NCBI GenBank assembly: GCA_964016885.1
Contig: OZ024740.1
Span: forward strand, 63,984,001 to 64,048,000
DNA length: 64,000 nt
Direction of reading: 5' to 3'
From: Eledone cirrhosa
Lineage: Eukaryota
In this document: one piece after another, positions 3,306-62,791 of the stretch
Position numbering within the stretch: the stretch's first letter is position 1
How the letters are laid out: each line of letters opens with the position of its first letter
The notes under the pieces: model-generated
Told to the model about the DNA's origin: nothing
The model's database searches: none
Seen by the model: only the letters and a program-made list of their open reading frames with translations
Program-made: the position numbers and the translations under genes

Positions 3306-3347
<42 letters not shown>
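3306..3347. repeat. (AAT)n microsatellite separating Tx1 copies A and B
   Basis: Perfect AAT run between the 5' end of A and the 3' end of B. Confidence 0.97.
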
Positions 3348-3349
<2 letters not shown>

Positions 3350-3597
3350 TTTCTTTATTAACCACAAGGGTTTACATAAAGTAGACATTAAGGACAGTGC
3401 AGGACAATGCAGGACGGTACAAATGGGCATTTCTGCATGTAAAAAACAAAAACAGAGGATGTAACAAAAAATAACAATGAAAAATTCCCCAATAGGGGGC
3501 AGACTTCGGAGGGACATTTGTGGAGAAAGCCCAGTAAAAAGCCACAATGACCCTGACCACCAAGGCAAGTGCCCTCTCCCAGTTTTCCACCTTTAAT

Positions 3598-5772
3598 TTA
3601 CAGATATATACTCAGAGTAGGCCCATTCACTCGGGCCATTCTTGCTTCTCTCACCCATCTTTCAACAAAATGCTGGGAAGAGAGCACTTCCCTCTCTACT
3701 CTGATTTTCCTTTTCAAATGAAATTTGAAAAAGTCAATCAGAGCATCACCGAAGAGGTAAGTGCTCGTCTTCAGCCCTTTCAAACGTGTCCACCATACTA
3801 TCTCTTTCACCATGGCCACCAGGCAGATAAAAACTGCCTGCCCTTCCCGGCTAAAGGAGGAGGGCGGGGCAATCCTCACGATGGACTCAGATGATAGCCG
3901 GATCCGTCCTAAACGCGACAGCAGGTGTTCGACATAAACCCACAAGTCAGCAATTTTGGGACACTGGACGAGTGCGTGCATGACGGTTTCGTCGCCCTGC
4001 GCGCATCTCGGACATGCCCGGCTGACGGCACCTCCATGCCTGTAGAGTTTATCCCGAACTGGCAAGGCTCCTCGGTAGCACTGCCAGGCCAGAGATTTCT
4101 GGAAGTTGTCCATAGGCCCTGGCCCGAAACTGCTTCCGAAGAGATTGGCTAGTTGATTTTCGTCGACGCCTAGAGTTTCCCAAAGTACGTCGTCGCTCTT
4201 CCCCTCCACAAATCCTCTATAGAACGCCGAGGTGGAGTTTCCACCGATCACATTGCCCGATTGGTCGAGGGCTGTGAGCGCCTGAAGACATTCCAGTCTC
4301 CAGGCGCTCCCTCTCGGTCTTCGCTTGATCCAGGACTGCAGCTCCGTCAAGGAAACGAGCTGGGGAAAAACGCGTCTAGCAAACGGCGACCACACCTGAT
4401 CACCGTCGAGGAAGAGGTGGAGATGTTGTAGCCTGAGCGCGTGCCTGCGCATCATCAGCCATGGCATGCCCAGCCCTCCACGTAGCGGGTGTTGACAACA
4501 GATGGACCGCCTGACCATCGGAGCACGTCCCTTCCACAAAAAGCGAAAGAGCAAACGCTCCAGCGCAGTCAGGCTAGGCTTAGGACAAGGTACGACGGTT
4601 AGGCGGTAGCAGATGACAGACGCGATGTACGCGTTAGCCACCTCCGCTCGACCTTTCAGGGATAGCTTCCTCTCCGCCCATTTCTGGGTGAGAGAAGCCA
4701 CCCTGCTCGTCACCTCGTCCCAGTTTTTGTCCGTCTGGAGGTCCGGACCGAACCAGACCCCTAGCAATTTAACCGGTCCGTCCGTCCAGCGCCCGACGAC
4801 GCTGTTGGACGGCATGGACCTGCCTATCCAGGTGCCGAGCTGCAGGCCCACTGGCTTTTCCTGGTTGATCATTGCTCCTGTCACCGCTTCGTATTCTCTT
4901 AGTGTAGTGCCGATCGCCTCGATGTGTTTGGCGTTCGACACCACTACGGTGACATCGTCCGCATATGCTGACACGGATCTTCCGCATCCTAGTTCGTGCG
5001 GGACTCCCCTCAACGTCTCCAGTTTGTGCAGTAATGGCTCGAGAGTCAATACGTACAAGAGGGACGAGAGGGGACATCCTTGGCGGACCGAGCGCATGAT
5101 GTTGAACGGTTCCGACAGGTGACCGTTCACTCTCACCACAGAGCAGATGTCGCTGTGCATGACAGCGATCCAGCCTCTGAAGACGGGCCCATAGCCAGCC
5201 GCCCTCAGGACTGCCGCTAGGTAATGATGGTCGACCCTATCGAAAGCTTTCGACTGATCTAAATTGATCAAGGACCCACCCGTGCCAGGTTCCTTAGCTA
5301 CCCTCTCTATGATGTATCGCATGAGGTGGAGGTTGTCGTGGATGGATCTGTCGGGAATGGCGCATGTCTGCGCCTCTCCAACCAGACCACCAACGACAAG
5401 CGCCAACCTCTTTGCTAGCACCTTGGCCAAAATCTTGAACTCTGTGTTTAGCAGAGTTATGGGCCGGAAATTGTCTATGTTATCCCCCTTGTTCGGATCC
5501 TTTCTCAGCAGTGCCACCGCTCTTCGGCTCACAGAACTGGGAATTCTCCCGTTCTGTTGCCAGTTGCAGTAGACGTCCACCAAGAGGCCTCCGAACAAGT
5601 CTGGCATCTGTACGTAAAGTTCATAGGGCAGACCATCCAAACCAGGCGATTTACCCCTTGTGCAGCCAGTCATTGCCTCCCTTACTTCAGCGGCTGTTAT
5701 CGGCTTTTCGCAACACTTCGCCTCAGTGGCCGAGAGCCGCGGCAGTCCGTCGAGGTAGACACTAAAATCCAT
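3598..5772 (-). CDS. Tx1 ORF2 reverse transcriptase + zf-RVT portion (cut off from APE by a stop and a frameshift)
   Basis: KSPGLDG, FRPITLLN, LDQSKAFDRV, VRQGCPLS, YADD, and CPRC..ETVMHALVQC. Confidence 0.93.
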   Translation of the reverse strand: MDFSVYLDGLPRLSATEAKCCEKPITAAEVREAMTGCTRGKSPGLDGLPYELYVQMPDLFGGLLVDVYCNWQQNGRIPSSVSRRAVALLRKDPNKGDNIDNFRPITLLNTEFKILAKVLAKRLALVVGGLVGEAQTCAIPDRSIHDNLHLMRYIIERVAKEPGTGGSLINLDQSKAFDRVDHHYLAAVLRAAGYGPVFRGWIAVMHSDICSVVRVNGHLSEPFNIMRSVRQGCPLSSLLYVLTLEPLLHKLETLRGVPHELGCGRSVSAYADDVTVVVSNAKHIEAIGTTLREYEAVTGAMINQEKPVGLQLGTWIGRSMPSNSVVGRWTDGPVKLLGVWFGPDLQTDKNWDEVTSRVASLTQKWAERKLSLKGRAEVANAYIASVICYRLTVVPCPKPSLTALERLLFRFLWKGRAPMVRRSICCQHPLRGGLGMPWLMMRRHALRLQHLHLFLDGDQVWSPFARRVFPQLVSLTELQSWIKRRPRGSAWRLECLQALTALDQSGNVIGGNSTSAFYRGFVEGKSDDVLWETLGVDENQLANLFGSSFGPGPMDNFQKSLAWQCYRGALPVRDKLYRHGGAVSRACPRCAQGDETVMHALVQCPKIADLWVYVEHLLSRLGRIRLSSESIVRIAPPSSFSREGQAVFICLVAMVKEIVWWTRLKGLKTSTYLFGDALIDFFKFHLKRKIRVEREVLSSQHFVERWVREARMARVNGPTLSIYL

Positions 5773-7016
5773 CCCTCTACCCGGCCCCCCGCTGCCCCCA
5801 ACAGCTGAGCGAAGTGTCGCTGAAAAGCTTCACACATTTGCCCGGGATCGAGTAGCATGCGCCCGTCGTGGTCCACCAAAGACCGGATCGTGGCTTTGAT
5901 GCCACGACGCGCCTCCGCCACTCGGGCCCATTGAACGGCTTTCGTCCCCTCGTGTCTGAGAGCACGCACCCTAGCTCTGACAACGCAGCCTTCGTGCTTT
6001 GCATTGAAGAATTGGTCAAGGGCCAATTTCGCCGCAAGCACGTCGGTCGCAATGCCTTTGCTAAGCACCTCGTCTAATTTTCTAACTAGTTCTCCCTCTG
6101 CTCTATTTTTCTCTATTGCTAAAGCCTTACTAAACCTAATCGATTCTATTCTAATCGCTCTTTTCAGAGCAAACCACCACTTGTTGTTGACGATGGCCCC
6201 CGTCAACGCCCGCTTAACTAGTTCGCTAATCCGGTCTCTGTAGGCCTTGCGCGCTGGTAAGGACGCCGTTAGCTTCCAGTAGCCGGGTCCTCGTCTATGA
6301 AGCCTATCTAAGTCAAGCACACAGGTCACAAATTTGTGGTCCGTGTAGCTGACTATCTTGAATTGTGGACAGCCTATGCTAGACCTATCTATTTCCCTAC
6401 AAAATACTCTATCTAGATATGATCTGGATGACCCTATGCGGTTTGTCTAAGTCCACATTGGCACATTCGGGAAATCCAATCGGTACCTGTCAGACAGTTC
6501 AAAACGCCTGAGCAGGTTGGTGAGGCTCTTGCACCCTCCACCCCTATCTGCTAATCCCACACAGTCCCAGCGTGCATCTAAGATCCCGTTCCAGTCGCCC
6601 ACTAACACTAAAGAGCGGGACGTTCCAAGAAAGGTCTCCAGACGCCGGAAGAAATCAGGCCGCCCTGCTCCTGTCGGGGCATAGACGGCCACTAGCCTGA
6701 AAGCTTGCCCGTCTCCGCTGCTCACGTCCAGCACCACCAGCTTACCCTCTGGGTCCAGGAAGATGGCCCGTATGGCGAGATCCAAACCTCTCAGAAAAAG
6801 CACAGCAACTCCTCCACCCGATCCAGGACGGCTGGGAGATGCGTACACATCGCAGCCGCCGAAGATCGGTGCGAAGGCCCGTGCTTCGGAGATTCTGGTC
6901 TCGCTGATGGCCACTACATCTATGTTTAGTGACCTGAGGTCGTTGAGCAGGTGACCCTGCTTCCATGACGACCCCAAGCCACGCGCATTTATGCTGCCTA
7001 TTCTGAGTGAGGTCAT
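5697..7016 (-). pseudogene. Tx1 ORF2 APE endonuclease and linker (premature TAG at 6447-6449)
   Basis: APE motifs. TGG in copy A is TAG here. GPGYWKL linker motif follows. Confidence 0.9.
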
Positions 7017-7051
7017 GTTTAAAATAGAGTGGAAAAGATGGGAAAGACCAC

Positions 7052-9240
7052 TTACCGTACTTTTGGTAGAGGAGGGATAGTTTTTACATCCCTTTTCACT
7101 TGATAGTCTGGTGAAGGGACCGTTGAATCGTCCCTTCGGCTGGTCGTCGGCTCTTCTAAGAGAATGTCTGAATATACTCTTCGATTGATGGTTCCTCCTA
7201 GGTCCCTGAAATCACCAACTGCGTTGGGGAATTTCGTTTTAATGTTTGTGTATTGTTTCTGTGCTATTTTTAGCAGTCTTTTGTTAGTTGGCGTTTTGAT
7301 TGGTGCTGGTATTATGTAGTCCTGTTGTGAAATGTCTGTGTGTTCAATTATGTAAGTCATTAGTTTCTCGTTGTGTGTGTTTATTGCCGTGCATTTGTTT
7401 TTCTGGGGGTGCGGTGTGGTTCTGCTATTTTCTTGTCGTTGTTGCTGAGTGTGTGTGTTTTGTTGTTGTGTTTGCGATGTTGGTGCTTGTGGTGGTGGTG
7501 TTGAAGGTGTTGTTGGCGGTGGGGTTGTCCCCGGTGGTGATGGTGGTGCTGGTGTGGGTGGTGATGGTGTTGGTGGTGTTGCTGCTGTGGGTCTCTTTGC
7601 AGTAGACTTTACCCTTTTCTCATTTCTTTCCTCCCTTTTCAAAGGCGACGATGCGCTGCTTCTGCGTTTGTGCCTTCTTGCGACCTTTTGCCATCCATCT
7701 CCCACCTCACACTCCATGTCCGATTCTGTGAGGTCGGGGAGGGGTACCAGCTCCACTCTTTCACTTGTCCTTGTTGGTGATGGTGGCAGTGGAGTCTCTG
7801 TTGCAGCTGCAGTTGGTATTACTGTTTTTGTTGTTAATACTTCCACTGCTGCTGCTGTTCTTGATTTCCGTGGCGTGGGTATGGGTGCCACGGACCTATA
7901 CTTCCTGCTTGCCGCCTGTCCTGTTGCTGGTAGCAGTGGAGCCGGTATCGGAAGGAGGGGGGTTTTCTCCTTTCTCAAGTTCTTCTCATTGCAGAAGGCA
8001 CTGAGGTGAGTCTTCGATCCACAGCGAGAGCATTTCGGGCGTTTGCCCTCAACACTTATGGGCAGTTGAGTGCCGTTATCGAAGTCTATCACATCCGGTT
8101 GGTTTGAATTAACATCTCAATGGAGGTGCCTACCCAATCTTCTCGTACTTTTTTCTGTACTTGCAGTACAGTTGTTTTGTCCTCGATTCCGACAAGGACA
8201 AACGTGGCCAGCCAAGAAGGGGCCATCGGGGGGGGGGGGGGGACGGACGGACGGACGGACGGACGGACGGGGGGACGTGGGTCAGTTTGACCCTCACAAT
8301 TTTTTGCCGGCAGTAGGAGGGCACCAACACCATTTCCTCGCTCCTTAGAGTCACTAAGGATTGAGTCTTTGCCTCCTGGGGTGTGGAAAGCATGTCCACG
8401 GTGGCACATATTTCTTGCCTCGGGTGATATGCGTTTTCCGCTGCCACACAGACCCTAAGGCTTTTTGTATTTGAGCCTCTGTGGCTCTTTCAACCCTACG
8501 TGATTTTGTGCTTAGTGTACGGTTCGTAACAGTACAGTGCTGTTGGGTTTCGAAAAATTTTTCGGTTGCCTTGCAGATTGCTCGGTGTCCGGTTTTTGTC
8601 ACTATCATCTTTGCTTCCTGTAATTCCTCAATTGTTATAAGGATGGTTTCCAGGTTCTTTGCGATACCTGTAAACGAGATTGGTTTTTCTTTCTTGTTGT
8701 TGTTGTTGTTGTCGTCAGAGCTGCTGTTACTTTTGTTGTTGCTGCTGGAACTACGACCGCTGCCGCCGCTTTTGCTGTGGTTGTTGTTGTTGTTGCTGCT
8801 GCTGCTGTTGTTGCTGTTGCTGCTGCTGTTGTTGTTTATGCTGCTGCTGATGTTGTTGCGGCTGCTACTAGTGTTTTCCTTGTCACTGTCGCTGCTGCTA
8901 CTGTTATTACGGCTGCTGCTGCTATTCTTCATGACGTCAGACGAATGAAATGGCTTTCCGTATTTACCGCACACATTTTTCGTCGTTGTCGTCGTCGTGG
9001 GGAAATGTTCCACGGAATGCACGTTCTCTTGGTGAAATCTACCAGAAACTATATTTTCTTTTTCTTTACTGGCGTCGCTTGCGAAAGAGGCGACACCACA
9101 TTTAGAGAAGGGAGGGAGAGAGACAATCTTCTCTCTGATGTAGTGACGATTGAGGAAGAAGACGGAATGAGTGGGAGTGACTTGTGAAAATTCTTTTTTG
9201 TAGCCATGTTTTTTTTGGGTTTAAAATGAATATTGGGCAC
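7052..9240 (-). pseudogene. Tx1 ORF1 (gag-like, CCHC knuckle, Asn/Ser- and Pro/Thr-rich tracts), frameshifted
   Basis: ORF pieces 9240-9049, 9022-8354, 8447-8130, 8409-8089 and 8092-7052; CX2CX4HX4C motif. Confidence 0.82.
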
Positions 9241-9422
9241 AAAACCCCAATAAGCGGTTATTTAACCCTGAAGGGCCAAATAACGGACAGAAAAACCCCT
9301 CTCACGAAGAGGAGGGTGTTTTTATGTACAATTTGATTAAAGTTTTAAACAATTTACAATTGTTATAGCGGTTAAAAATGACTATAACTTACAGAACCGA
9401 GCCTCCGTCAACCATGGCATTC

Positions 9423-9465
<43 letters not shown>
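9423..9465. repeat. (AAT)n microsatellite flanking the 5' end of Tx1 copy B
   Basis: Perfect AAT run. Confidence 0.97.
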
Positions 9466-10349: not shown

Positions 10350-13300
10350 CATTTTTGGGGCCCTTTCTGCCTGTGTGTTTGTTTGTTTATGTGTGTTCGT
10401 ATACAGCGTGGTGATAATGCCACACAAGGGCCAAGTGGGATGGCGGATCCACAGATGGCTATGTAAACATACATTCGCCAATCCTCGATAAGAGTGTTTA
10501 AATATCGAACATAAACAGTTCGAATAACGGTGAAATGGAGACTAGAACGTCATGTGACAGACTCTCACCCAACAGGTGCCCCCTGGCTCAGCAGCAGGAA
10601 CCTGACTGTCAACCAAATACTGCTGATGTTGGAGGAAGGAGAAGAAGGAAAGGGGCCAGAACCAACTGGACGAAAGAATTGAATAGAACTGTTATGCAAT
10701 GCTACCTGAAAAGTAACCCCAAAGAGAGGGGCTACAGGAGACGGATGCATAACATCTGGAACGAGATTGGTTTATTTAAATTAGATGAACAAAAATTGGC
10801 CGGGCAGGCTCGGGTAATAAGAACTAATGGGTGGATAAGCGAGCTGGAACTGGAGGAACTGAGCAGAGAGAATGGCTTGGAGATGGCGGGTGTAGTATGC
10901 CAGACAAGCGAGCCGGTGGGAAATGAAGGTGAGGAGGTCCTGAGAACGGAGGAACCACCCGAAGCAGACAATGATCTGAGTACTGAGATAAATAATAGCT
11001 GGAACAGAGATACGGCCACTGAGGAGATGAATGCTGACGGGCTAGGACAAGATTCGGTTGACATCCTAAATTTAGTGGTAGATGAATTGAACAATGATAG
11101 TGGGAGACCTATGAACCTAAGATTTGTAGACAGGAAAAAGTTAAAAGAAACAACAGCTAAGGTAAACAAAGTCATCCCATACCTTGAGGCGAGGAGCCTT
11201 CACCAGTGCAACAATATCCTCAGAGCAACAGCAAATACGGTGAGGAAACTACTTGGTATAAAAGCGAGAGGAAACAACAGACAAGAAAGAGCAGAGCCGT
11301 GGTGGAAGAAGCGACTGAGTGGGCAAATCGGGGAAATGAGAAATGACATAGGAAAGCTTGAGTCACTACTGAATGGGACACTAAAAAACATAGGCACTAA
11401 AAATAGACTGGAAATAAAATACAAAACTAGGAGCAAAAAGCTAAATATTATCATAGAGGAATTGAAGCAACGCATTGTAGCAAAGAGTGCAAAAATCAGG
11501 CGATACGAGAACAGAGTCAGTCAGTATAAACAGAACCGCATGTTCGACAACAACCAGAAATGCTGTTTGGACAGCTTGAGGGCAAAGAAAGAGGCAACGA
11601 CTTGATCCCTGGGGCGGAGCAAACTAAAACATTCTGGAGAGGAATATGGGAGCAGGATGTTAGACACAATGCCCAGGCAGGGTGGATTGAGACAGTACAG
11701 AGGGAGATCGGTGGGCAGGCACAGCAACAGACTGATTTGAGTATCACAGTTGAAACTCTTAAGGGGCAAGCCAAAAAACTAACCAACTGGAAATCACCAG
11801 GCCCAGATGGTGTGCAGGGGTATTGGATTAAACATCTAACATCCCTCCACCCGAAGCTGACGGCCATGTTCAATGACTGCTTGGTGTCGGGTGAGGTGCC
11901 AGAGTGGTTGACAAAAGGTACCACAGTTCTGATAATGAAAGACTGAATCAAGGGTAATGATGCTACCAACTATAGACCTATCACATGTCTGCCCGTAATG
12001 TGGAAACTGTTGACGAGCATTGTGTCTGAGGAAATCTACCATCACCTCCACACAAACAACTTGTTACCGGACGAACAGAAAGGATGCCGAAAGAAGTCAC
12101 GTGGTACAAAGGACCAGTTGCTTATTGATAAGATGGTAATGGGGAATTGCAGGAGGAGACACACTGATCTTGCCATGGGATGGATAGACTACAGAAAGGC
12201 ATTTGACATGGTGCCTCATTCCTGGATCACCAAAAGCCTGGAGATCTTCAGGGTGGCAGATAACATCAGACAGTTGCTAGGCAGGAGTATGGGGTCCTGG
12301 GAGACAGAGTTGACATCAACTGGAGTATCCTTGGGAAGCGTGAAGATCAAGAGAGGTATCTTCCAGGGAGATAGCCTGTCCCCTCTGTTGTTTGTCCTTG
12401 CCCTGATGCCCTTGACCATTATGCTGCGAAAAGTGAGAGCAGGATACAAGTTGGGAAGGGGAGAGCTTACCATCAATCACCTCCTCTTCATGGACGATCT
12501 TAAGCTCTTCGGGAAAAGTGAGAAGGAGTTGGATGTGCTTGTTGACACTGTCCATATTTTCAGCAGTGATATATGTATGCAGTTTGGTATTGGTAAATGT
12601 GGAGTCATTGTGATGAAGAGGGGTAGGTTGAGCAGAAGTAACGGGATCCAGATACCAACAGGTGAGATGATAAAGGAAATTGACTCTGAGGAAGGATACA
12701 AGTATTTGGGCGTTCTGGAGGCTGATGGCATAAAGAACAAAAAAATGAAGGAATTGTTAAGAACTGAATACATTCGGAGAGTAAGGAGCGTATTGAAGTC
12801 ACATCTGAACAGCAGAAATGCCATAAGCGCAGTAAATTCCCGAGCTGTGTCTATTATTAGGTACAGTGCGGGAATTCTGAGATGGAATGTTGCTGAACAG
12901 AAAGAAATGGATAGGAAGACTAGGAAGCTATTGACTATCTACAACATGTTCCACAAGAGGAGTGATGTCGATAGACTCTACCTAAGGAGATCTGAGGGTG
13001 GAAGAGGTCTTATCAGCATAGAGGACTGTGTTCAGATGGAGAAAAACAACCTATACAAATACGTGACCTATAGTAAGGAGCCAATGCTCAGAACTGTACT
13101 GAAGGAGGGGACAGTAGGCCAGGGGATGTCCAGGGAGGAAATAACATCAAGGAGGAAGAGCAGCCTTAAGGGAAAACCCCTTCATAGTACCTTCTTTGAG
13201 AAAACTGAATTTAGAGATCCACAGACATGGAACTGGTTGAGAAGAGGAGACCTCAAAAAGGCTACAGAAGGAATGCTAATGGCTGCGCAGGAGCAGGCCC

Positions 13301-13709
13301 TCAAAACGAAGTGGTTGAAGCACCATATCTACAAGGAGGAGGCTAGCCCACTGTGCAGGATCTGTGGAGAGAGAGAGGAGACTGTGGCTCACATTGTGTC
13401 CGAGTGTAAACACCTAGCCCAGACCCACTATAAGGGCTGGAGACACGATGTGATGGGCAGGGTGATCCACTGGCACCTATGCAAACTGGAACACAATAGA
13501 CCTGACCTGGTGGTTGTGGACAAAGAAAAAAGATCGTGCCTGATTGTGGATGTGGCCTGCCCGTTCGACACGAGAGTGCAAGAGAAGGAGAGGGAGAAAA
13601 TTAACCGATACCAGGACCTAAAGTGGGAGGTGAAAAGGATTTGGAACTGCCATGAAGTCAAAGTGATCCCGATTGTCATAGGCGCACTGGGGACTATCTC
13701 AAAAAGTTT
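10350..13709 (+). mobile_element. R4/Dong-clade non-LTR retrotransposon (single ORF, RT + restriction-like endonuclease), disrupted; 5' boundary approximate
   Basis: N-terminal WTKELN..GYRRRMHNIW. RT motifs [41 protein letters not shown] zinc motif, RHD and RPDL..DV RLE motifs. Frameshift near 11560, in-frame TGA at 11944. Confidence 0.9.
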
Positions 13710-13716
13710 AGCATGA
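11998..13716 (+). CDS. R4/Dong RT and RLE portion (carries a 111-nt in-frame deletion at 13485)
   Basis: 572-aa ORF with RT and RLE motifs; deletion inferred from alignment with 13804-14474. Confidence 0.88.
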
Positions 13717-17264: not shown

Positions 17265-17310
17265 ACACCACTGACGATGTTGCAGATGTGCAACGAAAGA
17301 TTTATGTAAA
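17265..17310 (+). ncRNA. Hammerhead-like core (weak stem I)
   Basis: CTGACGA-t-GTTGCA-gatg-TGCAAC-GAAA; stem I has only about 2 bp. Confidence 0.4.
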
Positions 17311-17512: not shown

Positions 17513-18541
<1,029 letters not shown>

Positions 18542-28070: not shown

Positions 28071-29922
28071 TTTAGACTTTTTAGAGCAGTGAGATCTTCA
28101 ATATATACATACGTATTGACGTTGTTACTATTCAAATTGCTCTTCGTGTGATTTATGGGCCGTTAATTTGGTACTCTAGCCAGGTGTTGACCATAGTATA
28201 GGAAGAAGGACAGGAACCTACGGAGGATATGCGAGTCAGCCATTTTAGTTAATACCTATATATTTAGGATTCAGTGCTGCTCAGTATTTCTGAGAGCGTA
28301 ACGTCCATCTTGTGACTGAAAAGGTCGTCTTCATACATTGGACGTTATAAGGCAGCCAGAGTATTAATGTATTATCTGCATGTTGTTTATACAGAAATGT
28401 AGTCACGGTAGACAAAGACCTTGGTATGGAAGCTGAGTTGGTTATTTAGAAGAACCGTCTTTCTGTGTCTTTCAAACGGTGACGAATTTAGCGAGAGTTG
28501 TACACTGGACATTATAAGCAACTCACAATTAGAAGCAGCGTCTGTGCCCAGAGACAAGACGGATACAAGTGATTTGAGGATGATTCTACCGAAAGGCTGG
28601 TGAGAACTGAGGAAATTGGCCAGGTTATTGTTGGTGTTGTTGCATTTTAAGTCTCTAGTAATGTCTGTTATTTCCAGTTAACTCACCTTTTTGCATGTCT
28701 AGAACTACATTGATCAATTTTTTTTGTGTATAAAATTTAAGGTGTAATGTGAGACAAAATGGCTTATGAAGAAACCAAATATATGTTGGAAGGAAGGTTA
28801 CACACACAAACACACACATATATATAAAATAAGGGAGAGACATATATATTTACTTTATAGCGTTTGTACACAGTACTAACATATTAACAATTACGTTGTG
28901 TAATTTTAGCCATTAAAGAAAACACGTTAACTGTTAAATTCAATTTTCGTATATTTTGAGATATGTCAACATTTTCGTTGCACCTCTATGATTTGGTTAC
29001 TGATATAATTCTATTGCAACTTAGTTATTGTCGAGCTTTTAGAGATCTTAGATTTTTCTTCTTTGTTATGTTTTTTCTTTGTTAACTTACAGATATATGG
29101 GTCTATTCCATAGCTGGCGTTTGATCTATTGACACCAGCTGTCGTTAGTCACTTTTCGACACCATTATTTTATATGTTTACAAACCGGTTTTTATTCTTA
29201 TAACAGTTTCTTAACACGGTCTTCGATCAAATTACTTGCCAAAGAAGTACAATTCCGAAACTAACACATTACAATACACAAAACTATAAATGTCTTGTTA
29301 CACACGAAATATCGTACCATGTAATTATCTGTCTCTGCGAAAAAATACTATTTTGTTATTTGAGTTTTGATTTGTTCGACATTCTACAGATATTATTGGT
29401 CCCAGTTGTTGCCACTGCTATGGCATACGAATGTTATGAACTGTAAGAATTCTGTAACAAGTCGTAAATTAAAATAATGATTTTCCGTTCGTTCTATGTT
29501 GTACACAAAAATAACATGTTGAAAGATGTTTTATAGCAGATATCTTGGGTGTTATAATTTACATAGAATTATGTCTTATTCGATTATTGGTGATGGAAAG
29601 AAAAATGGTCATCGACTTTGGTACGGTGTTAACATATAACTATTTCAGGGCTAGGTTGTTCTTGATGTTTAGCCCAAGGACAGTCTCAACTCAACAAACA
29701 AAAAAGTAAATGTTATCCAGTCAAGATAATTCGGCCTTTTATTCTCGACTACATTACCCAATGCGTGTTTGAGGGACATATATTCTGTCATTACAGTGTG
29801 GATATACAAAGGCACCGCATTGAAGGGAGTCGGGGGAACATATCGATACCTGTAATTATTTTTTAAAGCATGGTACTTATTTCATTCATCTCTTTTTGTT
29901 AAACCACTAGGTTTCGGGATAT

Positions 29923-30018
<96 letters not shown>

Positions 30019-30020
30019 TC

Positions 30021-30759
30021 GATCACAGAGGAAATCAGCCAAGCTCAAGCAGTGCTCACACATGTCGAGGTTGAATCAGGCAAAATGGGACTGCATCTCA
30101 ATGCAAAGAAGACCGAAATCATGCACTACAAACAGGTTGATCCAGCCCCTGTTCTTGCTAAGGACGGTACAACAATCAAAACAGTTGAGAACTTTAAGTA
30201 TCTTGGTGCATGGATGCATAGCTTACGCAAGGACTTTGAAGTTAGAAAAGCACTAGAATGGTCGGCGTGCCACAAGCTACTGAAGGTGTGGAAGTTCGAC
30301 CTAAACCGCAAAATCAAGGAGCACCTCTTCCTAGCAACTGTTGAGGCCGTCCTGCTTTACGGCAGTGAAACGTGGACTATTGACAAAGTGCTATGCAAGA
30401 GACTTGACGGATGTTACACGAGGATGTTGAGAACGGCTCGCAACATTTCTTGGAAACTGAAGCTGACAAATAAGGAACTATTCAGATATATACTCCAGTC
30501 TCAAAAAAGTTGCCTGCCGACGAATAAAACTGGCTGGGCACTGTATCCCTTATTCAGAAGAGATAGCATCACAACTTATGTCTGGAAACCGACGGTCGGA
30601 CGAAGAAGCGTGGGAAAACAGGCCGTCTCATTCGTTGATACCCTGCTGAGAGATGCCAACATTGATAACATCGATGAACTGAGAAATGTCATGCTCGACC
30701 GGGACGATTGGAGAAAGCGCGCTGAATCTTTGCGAGTGTAAACTCGGCCGAAGAAGAAG
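30021..30759 (+). mobile_element. 5'-truncated RTE/RTE-X LINE with (GAA)n tail and 8-bp TSD ATATATTC
   Basis: GLHLNAKKTE, VENFKYLG, LLYGSETW. TSD at 30013-30020 and 30760-30767. Confidence 0.85.
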
Positions 30760-34864: not shown

Positions 34865-37800
34865 TCTACCAGACGCGTGTAACTTCGCGGAGAAGTTTCC
34901 GTTAATTTATGTAAGAAAAGAACGTGAGTTTTCAGTTAAATTTTATATTATTGTGTAACTTGACCCCCCGTCTGGACCTTCAGGTGATAGGTCAACTCAT
35001 TTTCGCCCCTACAGGGGCGAAATATTCGTTTGAAAAATTTTTTCTCCATCGAATTTTTGAAAAAATATCGTAAGAAGTTTGACTACGTTATGAACGCTGC
35101 GTTCGACGATAATGGTGGTGGAGAGTCGGTAAGACTAAATAGCTCGCAGTCAACATCGTCTTCTTCCCTTCCTTCTCCATAGATAGTATGGAGATGGAAA
35201 GACAAAATGAAATTGTAAAAACAAATTCATATCCAAACACAAATGACACAAAACAGTACAATGACAACAAGAATAACAACACCAATAATGATGATAAAAA
35301 CAACAATGACACCAACAACAACAAAAAAATAAAGACAACACCAATAATACCAGCATCAAAGACAACAACAACACCAACACCAAGGAAAATATGAACAATA
35401 TCAACATCAGTGACAACATGAATAACAACAACAAGAATAACAATAATGACAACACAACCAACACGGATAATTCCACAAAGAAACCGAAAATCTCCTTTGC
35501 ACAGACAGTTCAGAAAAAGGAGGAACTAACATATCTCGACATAACAAATGCCGAACAACTTTTAAAGGACGCTAGGAGATATGTTACTTTCGAAAAGAAT
35601 GGTGCTTTCAGCATCAATTCTCCGGTAGAAATTCGCAAGGGAACTGCTCTCAAAACGATAGCTTTTAGGACAGTTTCAAATTCTACCCGAAAACCAGTCC
35701 AATTGTCACAGAAAGAAATTGAACTGGTTTTCAAAAATTCAATGAATGATATTTCATTCATTCAAAGAAGCAAACTCTTTGGGAGTATTTCGGTTCTCAT
35801 GAAGGATCAATTGACGGCCCCAAATTACTGTGCCGCCAATTGTATACAACCTGTATACCCTTTTCCCTACATACATGGGAAAAAGGACACAAAAGATTAG
35901 AATCACGAGTGTCACACCAAAGGTAAACATATGGTGAATACTGTGCGGCTTCATCAATTTTGATGAAGACAGAATACTATCGGACAGCGAGACAAAGTTC
36001 TGCGGAAAGCCGATTTCAGCCGCTGAGATAGGGGACGCGCTGAGCCAATGCGCAAACGCAAATCTCCAGGTCTCGACGGTCTACCCTACGAATTTTACGT
36101 AGCAATGCCGGACTTATTCTCCGGTCTCCTGGAAGCGGTCTACTGCAACTGACAACAGAAAGGGAGAATTCCCAGTTCTGTGACCGGGGGCGTAGTCACA
36201 CTAGTCAGGAAGGACGAGAATAAGGGGGATGACATAGGAAACTTCCGGTCCATAACTCTGCTAAACACAGAATTACAGATTTTGGCCAAGGTGTTGGCAA
36301 AGAGGCTGGCGCTTGTCGTCGAGAACCTGGTGGGTGAAGCGCAGACATGCGCAATCCAAACCAGGTCCATACACGACAACCTCCACCTCATGCGATACAT
36401 CACAGAGAGGGTGGGGTGTAAACCCGGCTTCGGTGGGGCCCTGATCAACTTGGATCAGTCTAAGGCTTTCGATAGGGTTGACCATCGTTACCTGGATGCG
36501 GTGCTCGAGGCGGCAGGCTTCGGACCCGTGTTCAGTGGCTGGATTGCTGCAATACACAACAGCAACATCTGCTCAAGGGCCAAGGTGAACGGCTACCTCT
36601 CGGAGCCGTTCCATATCACGCGATCCATTCGACAGGGATGCCCTCTCTCCTCCCTTCTGTACGTACTGACTCTCGAGCCACTACTGCGGAAGTTAGGGCT
36701 ATTGCAGGGCATCCCTCTGTAATCGGGACTGTGGAAAGCGGCGTCGGCCTACGCCGACGACGTGACATTAATGGTCTCGAGCGCCTCGCAAATCGAGGAA
36801 GTCGGCACCTTACTGAAGGAATACGAAAGTTTCACAGGAGCGAAGCTGAACCGGGACAAGTCCATCGGTTTGCAACTCGGATCGTGGAGAGGCAAACCGA
36901 TGCCTTCCGATGGCGTCGTCGGACGCTGGACGGAAGGACCGGTAAAGCTGCTCGGGGTCTGGTTTGGTCCGGACCTCCAGGTGGAGAAGAACTGGAACGA
37001 GGTGACGGCCAAGGTGTTTGCACTCACCCAGAAGTGGGCCGAGTGCAAACTATCCTTGAAAGGTCGAGCGGAGGTGGCGAACACTTTTATAGCATCCGCC
37101 ATCTACTACCGCTTGACAGTCGTGCCTTGTCCAGCCAAAACGCTCACCAAAATGGAGCGCGCGCTCTTCCAATTCTTTTGGAAGAGGCGGGCTCCTTTGG
37201 TGAGAAGATCCATCTGCTGCCAACACCCTTCCAACGGAGGGTTGGGGATGCCGTGGCTGACGATGCGCAAACACGCGCTCAGGCTGCGGTATCGCTACGT
37301 ATTCCTCACCGGACAACCGGTGTGGGCCCCGTTAGTGAGGCGAGCCTTCCCACGACTCGTCTCGCTGACCGAGCTGCAGTCCTGGGTCAAGCAAAGACCT
37401 AGGAAAATGGGCGATTGGCACATCGAATGTGCTCAGGCGCTCACAGCCCTCTGGCAGGCGGACCCGGCGATCAGTGGAGACTCCACTTCGTCATTCTATA
37501 GAGGCAAGTGCGACGACGCGCTCGGTGAAACTCTAGGCGTAGAGGAAGATGAACTGGCCAGTCTCTTCGGTAGGACCTTCCGCCCGGGACCGATGGACAA
37601 CTTCCAAAAGTCCCTGGCCTGGCAGTGCTACTGAGGAGCTCTACCAGTTCGAGACAAGCTCTACAGACATGCAAAAAAGATCTGTCCGAGGTGCGTGCGA
37701 GACGAAGAAACCGTCGTGCACGCATTCATACACTGCCCGGGCGTCACCGACCTGTGGGGCTATGTAGAACGACTGTTGTCGCGGGTGGGACCAATCCGGT

Positions 37801-38326
37801 TGACCACCGAGTCCATTGTCATGATCAAACCGCCACCCTCCTTCAAAAACGAAGGAGAAGCGGTTTTCCTTTGTGTGATAGCTATGGCGAAAGAGGTTGT
37901 ATGGTGGACAAGGTTGAAAGTGCTGAGGTCAGACACCTTTCTCTCCGTCCAACAACTGATTCTTTTTTTCAAATACCACTTTGGAAGAAGAATCAGGATG
38001 GAGAGAGAGGTGCAAGTTTTATGAAAGGTAGGTGAAAGTGGCGAGAATGGCCCGAGTGAATGGACCTTCTCTCTATATCAGCCTGTAGGTTGAGGAAAAG
38101 GAGGAGGAGAGGAAAGGAGTACAAACTCTTCGTACTCCTGGAGATGAGGGTTGCACATTTTTTCGGGGGAATGTGTTACCCATATGAATTGTCTCCCCCT
38201 ATTGGGGAAAATCGACTAATTTTTAAATTGCATTTGTGATAATATTTTACACGTTTTTATTGTATGTAAACTTCCCCCTTTGTATTTGTCCCCTTTTTTT
38301 GTGCCCCTGTGGCTAATAAAGAAACA
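34865..38326 (+). mobile_element. Tx1/L1-clade element, second family (copy C); internally deleted (ORF1 C-terminus and APE missing, junction ~35965), multiple stops
   Basis: Asn-rich ORF1 start at 35188-35940 joined to RT (GKPISAAE, SPGLDG, LDQSKAFDRV, RQGCPLS, YADD) clearly homologous to 3598-5772. Ends gtggctAATAAAGAAA like copy B. Confidence 0.9.
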
Positions 38327-48685: not shown

Positions 48686-48765
<80 letters not shown>

Positions 48766-48769
<4 letters not shown>

Positions 48770-49217
48770 ACGTACATACATATATGTATGCAGACGTACA
48801 GTAGTATGTATATACATACATACATGCACACATATATATATGTACGTATGGGATTACCGAACATTTATTATAATGTTCGTTTTTTTGTAAACAAACAGCC
48901 CGAGTTAAGCCGTACAGTGTTCGGCAACCATCATTGCCCTTTTGTTCAACACTGACAAAGGAACGATGAACTAGTTTCTAGCTTCTTAGCTGTTATCAAC
49001 ACCGTATACCTTCCTGTCAATCGATTGAACGTTTGCAAGTATATACTTTCCTTATGCATATGAACGGCTGAGCAGCCTAATTTGCATATCAAGTGAGTTA
49101 GTCGGCCGGGTGTACCGAAAACGATAAAAGGAAAAAATGAAATTTCATTTCTCACTCTTAGTACGGCTGATACTTAAATATAAGTATGTATACGTACATA
49201 CATATATGTATACAGAC

Positions 49218-49220
<3 letters not shown>
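48766..49220 (-). mobile_element. Terminally redundant 422-nt retrozyme-like unit (hammerhead core mutated to TTGATAA)
   Basis: 33-nt direct repeat gtatacgtacatacatatatgtatRcagacgta at 48766 and 49188. Homologous to 18088-18500. Flanked by (TA)n. Confidence 0.82.
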
Positions 49221-49869
<649 letters not shown>

Positions 49870-50404
49870 TAATAAGAGGAATTCCAACTTTGTCTGATTT
49901 ACTCGTTTTATTTACAATCCTTTAAAATATATATACTGGTATTATAATGAAATAGTATGATAGAATATTAAATTCTAAGTGTTAATTGAACAAGTACTTT
50001 CATGCTTTCGCAATCTTCAGGTTCATGATATGTGGTGACAGTCGAGTTTGCAATTTTCAACTGTAATGAGATGGGTAAATTTCCTACCTTTTATACATTT
50101 TATACAGAGAAAAGTGGCTCCAGAATGCAAAGCCCTGTAAACTGTATTTCGACCAATCAGTGTGTAGTTTCACTGAATTACTACAGCTGATTGGTTTAAG
50201 CGTCACGGCTGGTTGAGCATGCTAACGACCAATAGTCATCTCCAACGTATCAATTGTTTTGCTTTTTTTGAAATGATGAAAATAGCATTTTCTATTAATC
50301 ATCACCATCAACATCACTTTTATTATTATTATTATTATTGTTGTTGTTGTTGTTGTTAGTGGTCGTGGTCATAGTGGTAGTAGAAGTAATACCCCTAGGC
50401 GTTA

Positions 50405-52881
50405 TTATTGTTCATTTAGCTTGGGTTTGAATTTATCAATAAAATTCTTTTCTTTGATTTTTCTCTTGATTTCACTTGGGCTGTGTAATTTGTAGAATGG
50501 GAATATTATAAATATTCCCTGACCACATGTTGCCAGGTGGCCGCTTAGGGGTATCTGACGGACATTTGGGTCTCTGATTTGTTGACGGTGTACCCGTGCA
50601 CGTTCCGATAGTGCATTTCCAGTTTGACCGACATATAGTTCTTCACAATTCGGGCATTTAATGCAGTAAATTAGATTTCTGTTTTTGCAGTTCATATTTG
50701 CATTTGGGAATATTTTTCCAGTTTTTGTTTTCATATATTGACCGGCGTGTATGGATTGACATGTGCCGCATCGATTATCATTGCATTTAGATACAGTGAA
50801 TGATTGGTCTTTGTTGTTAAGGTCAAACTTTGCTTTTGTTAGCAATTGCTTCAAATTTTTTGGCTGTCTTTTACTAAGAGTCAAAGATCGATCTGTGATT
50901 AAGCCTTTTAATTCATTACTTTGAGCAATGATCGGTAGGTTTGCTTTGGCAGTGTTGAAGATATTCTGGTGACATGGGTTGTGTGTCATTATAAATGGTA
51001 TGACCAGTTCTTGGTTTCTTCTTCCTTGGGTTGTTCTAAGTTGTTGTATAGGTATTTTTATAGCCCGCTGTATGCCATTTTCTATAAGTAGAGATGGGTA
51101 TTTTTGTTTGAGCAAAAATTCTCTTAGTTCTGTTAGGCGTTTGTACCTGGTATTCGTATCTTCTACAATGGTACAAATTCTTCTGGCTAGGCAGTATGGG
51201 ATGTTGCGTTTTGTATGAGGTGGATGGCACGACTTAAAATTCAGATATTGATGGGTGTCTGTGTGTTTATAATATATATCCGTGGTAATGGTGGTGTCGT
51301 TTTTGATTATCATTATATCTAGGAATGGTAAGTTGGTCCTACTCATCTCTTTTGTGAATTGGAGAGATGGGTGTAGGTTATTCAGGAGGATATTGAACTC
51401 ATCCAGAGTATCTAGAGATTCTGTCCAGATGATGAAACAGTCGTCAAGGTATCTGTCTCTTCCAAGATTTTTCAATGTACTTTCTAAAGTCAGTACTATA
51501 TTTTTCCTCTATTTCTTGGTAGAGTTGTTGTTCTAAGTATCCCATTACAGAGTTCGCGTAAACGGGAGCAAACTTCGTTCCCATCGCTGTACCTCTAATT
51601 TGGATGTAATTCTTTCCATTGAAGAAGAAAGTGTTGTTTTCCAGAATAAGTTTAACTGCGTCTAATATAAATGGCGCTGTGAATCTAATGGGAATCACTT
51701 CTCTATGTTTTTCCATCCAGTATTTAACCGCCTTTATTCCTAAATCATGTGTAATGTTGGTGTAAAGGCTTACCACATCAAAACTGAGTAGAAGTGAATT
51801 CGTTTCCGTGGTTTTGGGAAGATGGGACAGGAAGTCGATATCATCCCAGATGAAACTGGGTATGTGAATACATAGTGGTTTCAAAATAATGTCAACAAAA
51901 TTGCTTAGACGGCGAGTGGGGCATGTTGGACCAGCTATAATAGGTCTAAGTTTTAAGTCTTTAGTGTGTAATAATTTAATGTACTCACTGTTTTGTTCTC
52001 TTACTGCCAGTTGTATTTCTTTTGACTTGTGAACTTTCGGTAGGCCATACAGGTTGCTGGGTTTCGGCTCAAAATTGGTGATGTAGTCTCTTTCCTTATC
52101 AGTAAATGAGTTGTGGTATTTTGAAGCCAGATTGTTGATCTTCTTCATGATGTTGTGGTCTATATTTGACGGTATTTCATGATAGAATGTTGTGTCTTTC
52201 AGTTGTTCCTCAACCAAATCCTTGTAGTATTCAGTATCCATTATAACAACTGCACCCCCTTTATCTGCTTGTTTAATTATTATTGTTTTATCATTTTGTA
52301 TACGTTTAAGTGCAGACATTTCTGATTTGTTAATGTTTCGCCTAACATTAGTAATATGTCTAAGAGGAAATTTAGACAGGATGTCAATGTATTGGTCGAG
52401 ATAGATATTTCTTCCTTTTGGCGGAGTGAAATTTGATTTATTCTTTACTAGTGATTCATCACTCTCATTATTTTTATCAGCGAAGAATTCTACAAGACGT
52501 AATTTTCGACAGAATTCTTGGGTATCCTCCTTCAGTTCTTGGTGGTTGACTGTTGGAGTCGGTGTGAATTTCAGTCCTTTTGACAGAATTTGCATTTCAT
52601 CATTGTCAAGATCTCTTTTAGATAAATTAATTATTTTAGGATCTACGTGTACAGCTGTTTTGGGTATGTTTCCTCCTGGAGTTTTTCTTTTTCCGGTTTT
52701 TGTTGTCCGACGTTAAAAAATGGATTTTTCTCTGTTCAGGATTTATATTTCTGTTGGTGTTCGCTTGATGAACTTTTGGTCGTGATATTATATTTGGTTT
52801 CGTTATGTATTTTGTCCTATTTTTGGTATTCTGTATATTATTTTTCTTCCTGTTAGCATTATTTTTAACAAAAATACCCAT
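50405..52881 (-). pseudogene. Penelope RT + GIY-YIG endonuclease ORF (frameshift ~51460, 5' truncated)
   Basis: ORFs 52595-51444 and 51475-50405 together give the full RT-EN order. Confidence 0.92.
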
Positions 52882-52985
52882 CTCTACTTATAGAAAATGG
52901 CATACAGCGGGCTATAAAAATACCTATACAACAACTTAGAACAACCCAAGGAAGAAGAAACCAAGAACTGGTCATACCATTTATA

Positions 52986-53570
52986 ATGACACACAACCCA
53001 TGTCACCAGAATATCTTCAACACTGCCAAAGCAAACCTACCGATCATTGCTCAAAGTAATGAATTAAAAGGCTTAATCACAGATCGATCTTTGACTCTTA
53101 GTAAAAGACAGCCAAAAAATTTGAAGCAATTGCTAACAAAAGCAAAGTTTGACCTTAACAACAAAGACCAATCATTCACTGTATCTAAATGCAATGATAA
53201 TCGATGCGGCACATGTCAATCCATACACGCCGGTCAATATATGAAAACAAAAACTGGAAAAATATTCCCAAATGCAAATATGAACTGTAAAAGCAGAAAT
53301 CTAATTTACTGCATTAAATGCCCGAATTGTGAAGAACTATATGTCGGTCAAACTGGAAATGCACTATCGGAACGTGCACGGGTACACCGTCAACAAATCA
53401 GAGACCCAAATGTCCGTCAGATACCCCTAAGCGGCCACCTGGCAACATGTGGTCAGGGAATATTTATAATATTCCCATTCTACAAATTACACAGCCCAAG
53501 TGAAATCAAGAGTAAAATCAAAGAAAAGAATTTTATTGATAAATTCAAACCCAAGCTAAATAAACAATAA
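52986..53570 (+). pseudogene. Inverted duplicate of the Neptune linker + GIY-YIG domain
   Basis: 194 aa identical to the C-terminus of 50405-51475 except three residues. Confidence 0.93.
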
Positions 53571-53949
53571 TAACGCCTAGGGGTATTACTTCTACTACCA
53601 CTATGACCACGACCACTAACAACAACAACAACAACAATAATAATAATAATAATAAAAGTGATGTTGATGGTGATGATTAATAGAAAATGCTATTTTCATC
53701 ATTTCAAAAAAAGCAAAACAATTGATACGTTGGATATGGCTATTGGTCGTTAGCATGCTCAACCAGCCGTGACGCTTAAACCAATCAGCTGTAGTAATTC
53801 AGTGAAACTACACACTGATTGGTCGAAATACAGTTTACAGGGCTTTGCATTCTGGAGCCACTTTTCTCTGTATAAAATGTATAAAAGGTAGGAAATTTAC
53901 CCATCTCATTACAGTTGAAAATTGCAAACTCGACTGTCACCACATATCA

Positions 53950-53988
53950 TGAACCTGAAGATTGCGAAAGCATGAAAGTACTTGTTCA
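53950..53988 (+). ncRNA. Type I hammerhead in the Neptune terminal repeat (mirror copy on the minus strand at 49987-50025)
   Basis: TGAAC-CTGAAGA-tTGC-GAAA-GCAt-GAAA-GTAC-TT-GTTCA: GNRA-capped stem II and palindromic helix III loop. Confidence 0.82.
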
Positions 53989-54149
53989 ATTAACACTTAG
54001 AATTTAATATTCTATCATACTATTTCATTATAATACCAGTATATATATTTTAAAGGATTGTAAATAAAACGAGTAAATCAGACAAAGTTGGAATTCCTCT
54101 TATTAATATAATCTTCTATACACAATCATACACACCCGTGTATATTTAC

Positions 54150-54700
<551 letters not shown>

Positions 54701-60672: not shown

Positions 60673-61711
60673 TCACAAAAGGCTTGATGAAATTTTTGGA
60701 GATCCCCCCAAAATGGCATATCCTTTTTGAAAAATGAATCTTCTTTTGTTTGGTGATTTGATGCAATTGCCACCTGTAAACGAAAAACCAGGATTTTCTA
60801 GAATTTCATCATATGATGCCAAAAGAACAGAAATTGGCATTAGTGGGCATTCATTGTGGAAATACTTTAAATATGATGAGCTAACCATTAATGAGACAAA
60901 AAGAAGACAAAGACAACTATGTTGATATTTTGGGAAGAATTAGGATTGGTTCCCCATCAGACTCTGATATTAGCATTCTTCAAAAAAGATGCCTATTTCC
61001 TGATAGAAAAGCATCTGTTGAAGAAATTGCTAAAAAATTGATTGAATTGTATTCTATTCCTGAATTAAAATATTTGTATGCATTTTACCTTTGAATGAAG
61101 TTGTTGATGAGTTGAATAATGAAATGATTAAAAAATGAAACATAAATGCAGTGAAACTTGCTGCAAAAGATTCTGGTATGAGACAAGTAAATGGAAGAAA
61201 AAAGAAAAATGTTGAAAAAGGCAAAAACAAGAAAACTTCTGATACTGCTGGACTAGAAACTTTGCTAAATGTTGGAATTGGAGCAAGAGTAATGTTGTAA
61301 CGAAACATTGATGTAGATCAAGGCTTATGCAATGGTGTTATTGGAACAGTTATTGAATTAATTGGGAATGGAAGCAGTGTTGACAAAATTTTGGTGTCTT
61401 TTGATACCAAAAAGGACAAACCCATTTCCATTGGAAGAGTTCAAGCAGCCTATGAAATTTCTCCTGGTGTTTTTGTCACCCGAACACAATTTCCATTGTC
61501 TCTTGCTTACTCTATAACAATTCACAAATCACAAGGAATTTCTGTGGATAGAATAATTGCTGATTTAGGAAATCAGATATTTTCTGATGGTCAAGCTTAT
61601 GTGGCTCTTTCAAGAGCCAGAAAACATTGCAATGTGTATCTCTGTGACTTTGATCCAAGATCATTGATCATGGTTGACAAATCTGCATGGGAAGAGTACA
61701 ACAAACTATGA
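60673..61711 (+). pseudogene. PIF1-family (SF1B) helicase, motifs III-VI, with stops and frameshifts
   Basis: FGDLMQLPPV, ELTIN.RQ, GARVML*RNIDVDQGLCNG, RTQFPLSLAYSITIHKSQG, GQAYVALSR. Confidence 0.9.
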
Positions 61712-61859
61712 GCTAGTACTGGAAGAGCAGATTTGCCTCCATTGTCACCTTGCAGGAAAAAGCCTCCTTGCATGGCAAATGCTTCTAGCATGCCCAACTT
61801 AAAAGACTTAATTTAGAAGGAAATTCAAACCAACCTGCCAACAAGAAGAAAAGAAATGA

Positions 61860-62791
61860 AAACAGCCAAACTTTAATCCCTAAACATCAATTGATCAACC
61901 AAAGAAATGCTTGTTTTGCAAATTCAGTTGTGCAATCACTGAATCAATTGCCTGAATGTGTAGAGTATTTGGATAATTTTAACAACATGAATGGAGTACA
62001 TCAAGAATTAAGCAATATCATTTTTAATAATCATAATAATGTCCCTAACTTAAGAAGAATAATTGGAGGAAGATTTCATGATGGAAATCAGCAATGTGCT
62101 CATGAATTTTGGAAAGAACTCTCTCTACATTTGGACTTGGTATTTAGAGAAAAACTTCAATTTATTCAAACTGATCATACTAGATGCATCCGATTGCATC
62201 AAACAAATTGCCAAGCTTTAAATAACAACGTTTGCAATTGTAATTCAAGACTTCCATTTCAAATAAAAGAGGATTTGATATTAAATCCTATTAATGGCAC
62301 ACAGCAATTTAAATCTCTACTTTCAACAACAAATACTTTGACTAAATACTGTGATACTTGTTCTGAAAATACTGAGCATCAAATAACTTCAAGAATTGAA
62401 TTTACTAACGATTTCAAATATCTTGTCATATCAATTAGTAGATTTTTGATTAATAATGAAGGAGAACAAAGAATTAATTGTGATATTATGAACTTTAGCT
62501 AAAAGAAGCAGCAAATATATGGCACAAATTTCACATTAACAGCTGCTATTCTTCATGAAGGAGTATTATCTACGGCAGGCCATTATACTTGTCTGGTAAA
62601 AAGTGGTGCTGAAAATTGGGATGAAATTAGTGACAACATTATCAAAAGATGGCACAATAAATGTCCTCCTAAGTTAGCTAATGTCGTTGTATTATTTATG
62701 TTTCCATAAATAATTGTTTCTACTTTAGGCACAAGGGTAATTGCTGGCCTTGTGCCTAAAGTAGAAACAATTATTTATGGAAACAATTTAG
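61860..62791 (+). pseudogene. Ubiquitin-specific protease-like (peptidase C19) domain; one internal stop, hairpin insertion near the end
   Basis: Cys box LINQRNACFANSVVQSL, QQCAHEF, C..C zinc ribbon. After the in-frame TAA at 62500: AILHEG..AGHYTCLVK..W.EISD (His/Asp boxes). Confidence 0.82.
62699..62785. repeat. Perfect 38-bp-arm hairpin made of a SINE family 1 tail plus inverted target DNA
   Basis: 62699-62736 is the reverse complement of 62748-62785; 11-nt loop. Confidence 0.92.

Follow-up and report, generated by a model that had tools for sequence, protein, structure and literature searches.

A hammerhead-bearing non-coding repeat with Penelope-type insertion marks beside a Penelope-like element: a probable non-LTR retrozyme family

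Which reverse transcriptase (RT) moves the retrozymes of animals, and is circular RNA their real template? These questions are raised by a 422-nt non-coding repeat, here called the unit, flagged at one place in the window, the whole 64-kb stretch of DNA that was analyzed. Retrozymes as a class, and Penelope-like elements (PLEs) as their candidate helpers, are already published, including a mussel family of 350–390 bp (PMC7229834). According to a 2020 review, retrozyme repeats show no motif that points to a helper (PMC7761336), and a 2026 preprint on Xenopus retrozymes does not settle how such elements move (10.64898/2026.07.22.740005). What is new here is a retrozyme-type family that carries Penelope insertion marks and lies beside a PLE. 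We argue that the unit is probably a non-LTR retrozyme mobilized in trans by a Penelope-like RT/GIY-YIG protein.

The original prediction had described the flagged copy, called T, as a unit that begins and ends with the same 33 nt, encodes no credible protein, and sits in (TA)n, and each part of that description holds (Table 1). Specifically, the ends of T repeat with a period of 422 nt, and the terminal repeat measures 33 nt once the TAT common with the flank is left off, or 36 nt with it. Across the whole 64-kb window, the terminal 36-mer finds 34–36 of 36 matches at five sites, all of this family, and the next best site reaches 29 of 36. The GC content of the unit is 36.5%. When the unit is doubled, i.e., read as a circle, its longest ATG-initiated ORF specifies 63 amino acids on the plus strand and 42 on the minus strand. 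The unit contains no RT or GIY-YIG ORF, and tblastn of the window with five full-length PLE relatives produced matches only at 50408–53567. No tandem array was seen in the window, where T, at 1.08 units, is the largest copy. Any target-site duplication of T is indiscernible within its (TA)n flanks; in metazoan retrozymes such duplications, when present, exceed 4 bp (PMC7229834). RNA folding of the unique part yields z = −3.2 for T and −4.7 for its sister copy D, with 0 of 100 shuffles as low. The antisense strand of the unit has z = −3.9, so its strong self-pairing is not strand-specific. Positions 49164 and 48912 may form a compensatory pair in a long-range helix; the pair is unphased and was left out of account.

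Table 1. Positions of the unit, its relatives, and neighboring Penelope-like elements in the window
Feature	Position	Strand	Remarks
Copy T, one 422-nt unit plus 33–36 nt overshoot (~1.08 units)	48763..49220	RNA sense minus	
T 5' overshoot, second copy of 3'-terminal 36 nt	49185..49220	-	35/36 match; minimal partial tandem, pseudo-LTR-like
T 3' terminus ("short end"), into (TA)n	48763..48798	-	same end in piece B; D 4–7 nt further
Long alternating purine-pyrimidine hairpin, ends at short 3' end	48766..48849	-	predicted fold; candidate RT start region
Short hairpin, deleted in pieces B and C	48858..48879	-	
(TA)n target, T left flank	48699..48764		
(TA)n target, T right flank	49219..49272		
Decayed type I hammerhead of T	48953..49019	-	C3U at 48999, G8A at 48994
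Octamer ATGCAAAT	49080..49087	-	again at 18169–18176; ~110 nt upstream of cut site
Sister copy D, ~400/422 circle positions	18088..18500	+	short 3' end into (TA)n
Intact type I hammerhead of D	18237..18303	+	CUGAUGA at 18257, GAAA at 18278
Piece C, 5'-inverted partner of D	17867..18087	-	starts 22 nt downstream of cut site, crosses junction
3' extension of C past short end, 62 nt	17867..17928	-	tail-like
Piece A	17607–17687	minus	with B, inverted duplicate of C/D junction
Piece B	17688–17844	plus	with A, inverted duplicate of C/D junction
P1, PLE: RT, then CX4CxxC linker, GIY-YIG	49866..54150	-	Pfam; frameshift near 51455
P1 inverted 3' copy	52867–54150		99.5% identical over 1244 bp (young)
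Tail of P1 inverted copy, 41 nt	54110–54150		
P1 minimal hammerheads	50020; 53955	-; +	
P2, short inverted-plus-sense insertion	54302..54694	-	P1 family, same short end
Tail of P2, 41 nt	54654–54694		

A second locus, 30 kb away, determines how the repeated ends of T are to be read. It had been taken for two pieces and consists of four, A through D. Sister copy D (18088–18496) is identical to T at 380 of 396 aligned bases, with 13 gap columns in addition. Piece C is joined head to head to D at 18087/18088, a joint known from one independent locus. As originally proposed, this antisense piece crosses the end-to-start junction, and it does so for 62 nt. The sequence of that extension is the sequence at the 5' end of T, which places the junction in an independent copy. 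Thus, neither target duplication nor local slippage explains the redundancy of T. Pieces A and B repeat the arrangement: B matches C at 152 of 157 positions, A matches D at 75 of 77, and the A+B joint and a 32-nt deletion are the same as in C/D. Should A+B have arisen by duplication at the DNA level, the independent copies would be T, C, and D alone, derived from two insertion events. On the hammerhead strand, all five 3' ends run into (TA)n, and three of the five (T, B, and D) cluster within ~7 nt; C ends 62 nt and A ~100 nt past the short end. Moreover, T reaches 252 nt upstream and 203 nt downstream of its hammerhead cut site, so that at this site its template either had not been cut or had been re-ligated. 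That template exceeded one unit in length and was either a circle or an uncleaved multimer, two forms that DNA alone cannot tell apart.

The type I hammerhead attributed to the unit is intact in D; in T, it lies on the minus strand and its core is mutated. The T core reads UUGAUAA, and because of these mutations T is expected to be inactive, a dead copy that should not cleave. Both mutated bases are restored in the family, and the equivalent of the cut site in T lies between 48969 and 48968. In D, the cut is predicted after 18287 (GUU). Helix I of D comprises 6 bp followed by a 6-nt bulge and distal segments of 3+5 bp, helix II has 4 bp, an AAUA loop, and at its base a C.A mismatch, and helix III has 2 bp inside the palindrome AACUAGUU. 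This geometry agrees with the canonical metazoan type I description in PMC4209133, unlike the minimal form in the neighboring PLE P1. According to the same source, a weak palindromic helix III implies cleavage as a dimer. The best predicted fold of the monomer hides the core (−17.4 vs −14.9 kcal/mol), and cleavage is probably dimer-dependent; of nine retrozyme dimers tested in the Xenopus preprint, only one cleaved (10.64898/2026.07.22.740005). A G10.1–C11.1 pair is called highly conserved in PMC4209133, and the base of helix II in the listed variants, which is C.A, or U.U if two substitutions are in phase, is not that pair. A U.U likewise occupies the helix II base in axolotl HHR_Amex2 (PMC7229834), and also in the P1 hammerhead, as in the GUA subfamily of the unit. 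Local Rfam searches of the unit returned 0 hammerhead matches up to E = 10. Of 177 Rfam hits for the whole window, the best 150 included no hammerhead; they were weak, among them miRNA-like matches to microsatellites. Pattern scans of metagenome and viral contigs gave 0 matches.

The unit is not confined to these two loci. Of 17 listed public sequencing runs, four (X1, X15, X4, and X5) were compared with T at 85% likeness; ten were left out for a word share below 0.3 or as the same sample, and two further RAD runs were left out too. The read comparison masked 48766–48851 and 49180–49220, hence the junction lies outside it. Matches to the unit, which are not copy numbers, comprise 5787 of 16,285,364 contigs in X1 and 54,562 of 12,467,656 reads in X15 (RAD), both from organism A, 3285 of 17,641,350 contigs in X4 (organism B), and 43 of 8,254,286 contigs in X5 (organism C). 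The family is clearly abundant in organisms A and B. Core base C3 is present in 98.5% of X15 reads (10778/10945) and in 98, 82, and 100% of the contig depth of X1, X4, and X5, respectively; the corresponding values for G8 are 94.1% (10439/11092) and 98, 97, and 100%. Among the best 40 of 80 listed variants, none hit another core position. At the cut site, 92% of X15 reads, 76% of X1 depth, and 98% of X5 depth have the triplet GUA, whereas 99% of X4 depth has GUU. The NUH rule permits A or U at hammerhead position 17, and the family has A or U there. The bases at the foot of helix II are C and A in X4 (94% and 99%) and U and U in X15 (93% and 94.5%). Thus, subfamilies differ at positions flanking a conserved core. 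The proposal of a retrozyme family stands to the extent that the repeat is high-copy and non-coding, that its type I core is conserved, and that its template exceeded one unit. A high-copy family with subfamily variation offers thousands of ends that could be mapped on the 422-nt circle.

Loose ends with high agreement at 48940 and 49010–49025 (X15, X5, and X4) belong to more diverged subfamilies that continue along the unit, and some changes in those subfamilies keep helix pairing (49017 and 49002). Another candidate, a dominant 3' terminus at 49139–49141 marked by ~24,000 X15 reads with loose ends, was rejected: an AATT site lies at 49141, other read ends also fall on AATT (49079/49082 and 48905), and agreement among the flanks is only 0.34, as expected of restriction–ligation chimeras. 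The X15 loose-end reads may fit a start at a CATG site 108 nt away across the junction, in the masked part.

The unit shares many properties with metazoan non-LTR retrozymes as described in PMC7229834. Like them, it is a non-coding repeat within 150–450 bp, with GC below 50%, strongly folded RNA, and a single type I hammerhead whose helix III is short and palindromic, and it coexists with autonomous PLEs. Unlike them, in this window it is seen as dispersed copies of ~1 unit, with 5' inversions and in (TA)n, rather than as tandem arrays with target-site duplications. The cephalopod lineage is absent from the main text of that paper; the window is probably octopod, judged indirectly by the closest named relative of a LINE ORF2 that it contains, in Argonauta hians. 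Our literature search returned no description of a cephalopod retrozyme; the supplements of PMC7229834, PMC4209133, and the Xenopus preprint might list cephalopod motifs. The main text of a 2026 Octopus vulgaris repeat catalogue does not contain the word "ribozyme" (PMC13282606), and the family would add a ribozyme-bearing repeat to cephalopod annotation. The Xenopus retrozymes resemble the unit in their proposed PLE dependence and in their dispersed monomers (10.64898/2026.07.22.740005). Their PLE origin is argued from pLTR homology, together with co-occurrence, whereas the evidence for the unit is insertion architecture, with no homology to the neighboring PLE. The Xenopus definition of "active" calls for two full tandem units, and none such was seen in the window.

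Concrete evidence for the kind of RT involved comes from the surroundings of T. P1 lies 650 bp from T in the same microsatellite cluster. Over both parts, it is 47–66% identical to full-length relatives, and its CX4CxxC linker points to the Neptune/Nematis type (PMC8557442). In that source, a partial tandem, a 5'-inverted copy, a tail on one end, and a (TA)n bias are the marks of Penelope insertion. P1 and P2 each combine a sense copy whose short end lies in (TA)n with an inverted copy whose end is 41 nt longer. The unit carries most of these marks. The pseudo-LTR-like partial tandem is present in T as the 36-nt 5' overshoot, and the inverted 5' partner is present as C joined to D. Where a tail would stand, of 30–40 bp in the literature and 41 nt in P1 and P2, C extends for 62 nt and A (possibly a DNA duplicate) for ~100 nt. 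The C+D plan is the P1/P2 plan, and the marks of the unit and of the PLE stand side by side. Use of a Penelope-like RT, one element of the original prediction, is probable and now has positive evidence in this insertion architecture. There is no significant similarity between the unit and the 3' region of P1, since shuffled sequences reach its score in 198 of 200 and 81 of 200 cases. Given the lack of sequence shared with P1 and an extension beyond the typical tail, P1 shows the type of helper rather than the helper itself.

Known PLEs provide further points of comparison. Like Neptune/Nematis (PMC8557442) and Poseidon PAc (PMC11167929), the unit has a partial tandem, an inverted 5' partner, a tail-like extension on one end, a hammerhead near the 3' end, and a (TA)n or AT-rich target; unlike them, it has no RT/GIY-YIG ORF, its hammerhead is of extended form, and its extension measures 62 rather than 30–41 nt. 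Non-autonomous PLEs of Chlamys, e.g., MRC1 (PMC8557442), are also non-coding, with pLTRs and head-to-tail insertions. These elements share 3' sequence with autonomous families, whereas the unit has no such match to P1, and canonical hammerheads are described as undetected in most Chlamys elements, whereas the unit possesses one.

The copies represent an abundant, hammerhead-bearing, non-autonomous retroelement. Judged by its sequence, the unit appears to behave as non-autonomous Penelope elements do, and it agrees with the retrozyme class in each feature for which the outcome was clear. Two internal RT start sites in an AC-rich stem-loop explain the tails of Penelope elements (PMC11167929). 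The short end of the unit lies at the foot of a long purine–pyrimidine hairpin in the predicted fold, and by analogy to that stem-loop we regard the hairpin as the candidate RT start region. The end repeat is best read as a 5' overshoot past a preferred 3' start and not as a random permutation. Clustered 3' ends are what internal Penelope initiation predicts, and fixed 3' ends, which the original prediction had counted against a circle, would thus not speak against one.

The notion is that a source locus of more than one unit would be transcribed on the hammerhead strand. Cleavage by the hammerhead would follow GUU or GUA and would probably be slow and proceed mostly in dimers, and the monomers may be closed into circles. 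An endonuclease would then nick (TA)n, and RT would start inside the RNA. The anatomy of the copies would place the preferred starts downstream of the cut site, at ~200 nt for the short end and ~260 nt for the long end. Copying did pass the hammerhead site, uncut or re-ligated, and T continues 33–36 nt beyond a full period. At one locus, an inverted partner with a longer 3' end is joined head to head. Later, the flagged copy lost its catalytic core. Counting against this explanation, besides the lack of a tandem array and of similarity to P1, the missing G10.1–C11.1 pair, the absence of Rfam matches, the buried core of the monomer, and the rarity of cleavage among the Xenopus dimers, are the 62-nt extension of C, seen at one locus, which exceeds the 30–40 bp of the literature and the 41 nt of P1 and P2, and the presence in the window of LINEs capable of 5' inversions.

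Within the Penelope explanation, the template may have been a covalently closed 422-nt monomer circle, with RT stalling about one turn after its start, a version that we hold to be somewhat less likely than not. Both long copies are near one period in length (T at 422 plus 33–36 nt, D at ~400 of 422, i.e., within 10% of one turn) and each of them includes the cut site, helix I would keep the two ends of a monomer next to each other, and circles are known for coral, mussel, and axolotl retrozymes (PMC7229834). However, only two copies are involved, and T was chosen for its redundancy. Both 5' ends coincide with predicted hairpins, which would also stop RT on a linear multimer, and in PMC11167929 uncleaved RNA is the dominant insertion substrate. 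The fuller picture, in which the copies are footprints of a Penelope RT that copied a closed 422-nt ribozyme circle from two fixed starts and stalled after about one turn, we consider rather doubtful. If correct, it would account for dispersed one-turn and inverted insertions in place of large arrays, for the absence of sequence common with the helper (recognition being by structure), and for a family that abounds in several genomes, probably those of octopods. One system would then unite the circular-RNA and internal-initiation models of Penelope mobility.

Penelope-type marks could also arise if the copies were truncated 3' ends, i.e., solo pseudo-LTRs, of a longer coding Penelope element rather than an independent family. 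All of the insertion marks are of Penelope type, Xenopus retrozymes resemble pLTRs (10.64898/2026.07.22.740005), and one X4 contig, among the best 24 of 624 loose ends, runs ~930 nt further upstream. Such an origin is nonetheless unlikely: in T, the unit's own 3' end recurs within 252 nt upstream of the hammerhead, and the extension of C repeats the sequence with which T and D begin. A 422-nt period follows, which leaves no space for an ORF. The hammerhead of the unit is, moreover, of extended form, unlike that of P1.

LINE ORFs are plentiful in the window, and the priming end of C lies 36 nt inside the 5' end of D, near the geometry of twin priming. The unit might be a hammerhead-bearing SINE-like or satellite sequence moved by a LINE (L1/Tx1, RTE, or R4/Dong-like), with the C/D inversion produced by twin priming on a multimer. 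We give this possibility little credence, about as little as an origin from solo pseudo-LTRs. The unit has no poly(A) or simple-repeat tail of its own, the window contains 0 tRNA genes, and the sense strand of the unit lacks both an A box and a B box. All ends lie in (TA)n, as do those of P1 and P2, and the same 3' region is found in both arms, as in Penelope inversions. Finally, target-site duplication, local DNA slippage in low-complexity sequence, or an assembly artifact is a very improbable source of the redundancy, and for T the junction in C largely refutes it. In favor of such a source, the repeated 36 nt are low in complexity, and A+B, with TA microhomology at both its ends, may be a DNA-level inverted duplication. 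Against it, the 36-mer also belongs to the element in D, B, and C, which lie 30 kb from T, C crosses the junction independently, and thousands of records in other runs match the unit.

The octamer ATGCAAAT is a weak lead toward an internal promoter (2.35% of 2000 shuffles; 8 octamers in the window; recognized post hoc). For newt satellite 2, use of an snRNA-type promoter is cited in PMC2220036.

Other elements in the window bear hammerhead-like motifs. A loose hammerhead core pattern has 22 matches there (overlapping, with ~12 starts) vs 6.3 expected. Immediately next to the unit and within its (TA)n cluster, 49274–49770 is a head-to-head inverted pair whose arms carry degenerate hammerhead-like motifs (49413 minus and ~49607 plus) with a long helix I; instead of a MITE, it may represent a second family of non-coding ribozyme elements. 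Two further head-to-head hammerhead-like pairs, at 22266 (-)/22419 (+) and 41060 (-)/41191 (+), lie in AT-rich palindromic elements and are probably PLE remnants. Single minimal hammerhead-like motifs with a clean helix II occur at 17271 (+) and 34323 (+), the latter with its GUU triplet in a palindrome. LINE ORFs and helicase/protease-like fragments occupy 2–9464, 35977–38072, 10502–13716, 29911–30741, and 61301–62502. The helicase/protease-like fragments resemble derivatives of Helitrons. Among these sequences is a 3.3-kb direct repeat (96%) around an L1/Tx1-type element, and the best named match of the L1/Tx1-type ORF2 in the window is to Argonauta hians, at 67%.
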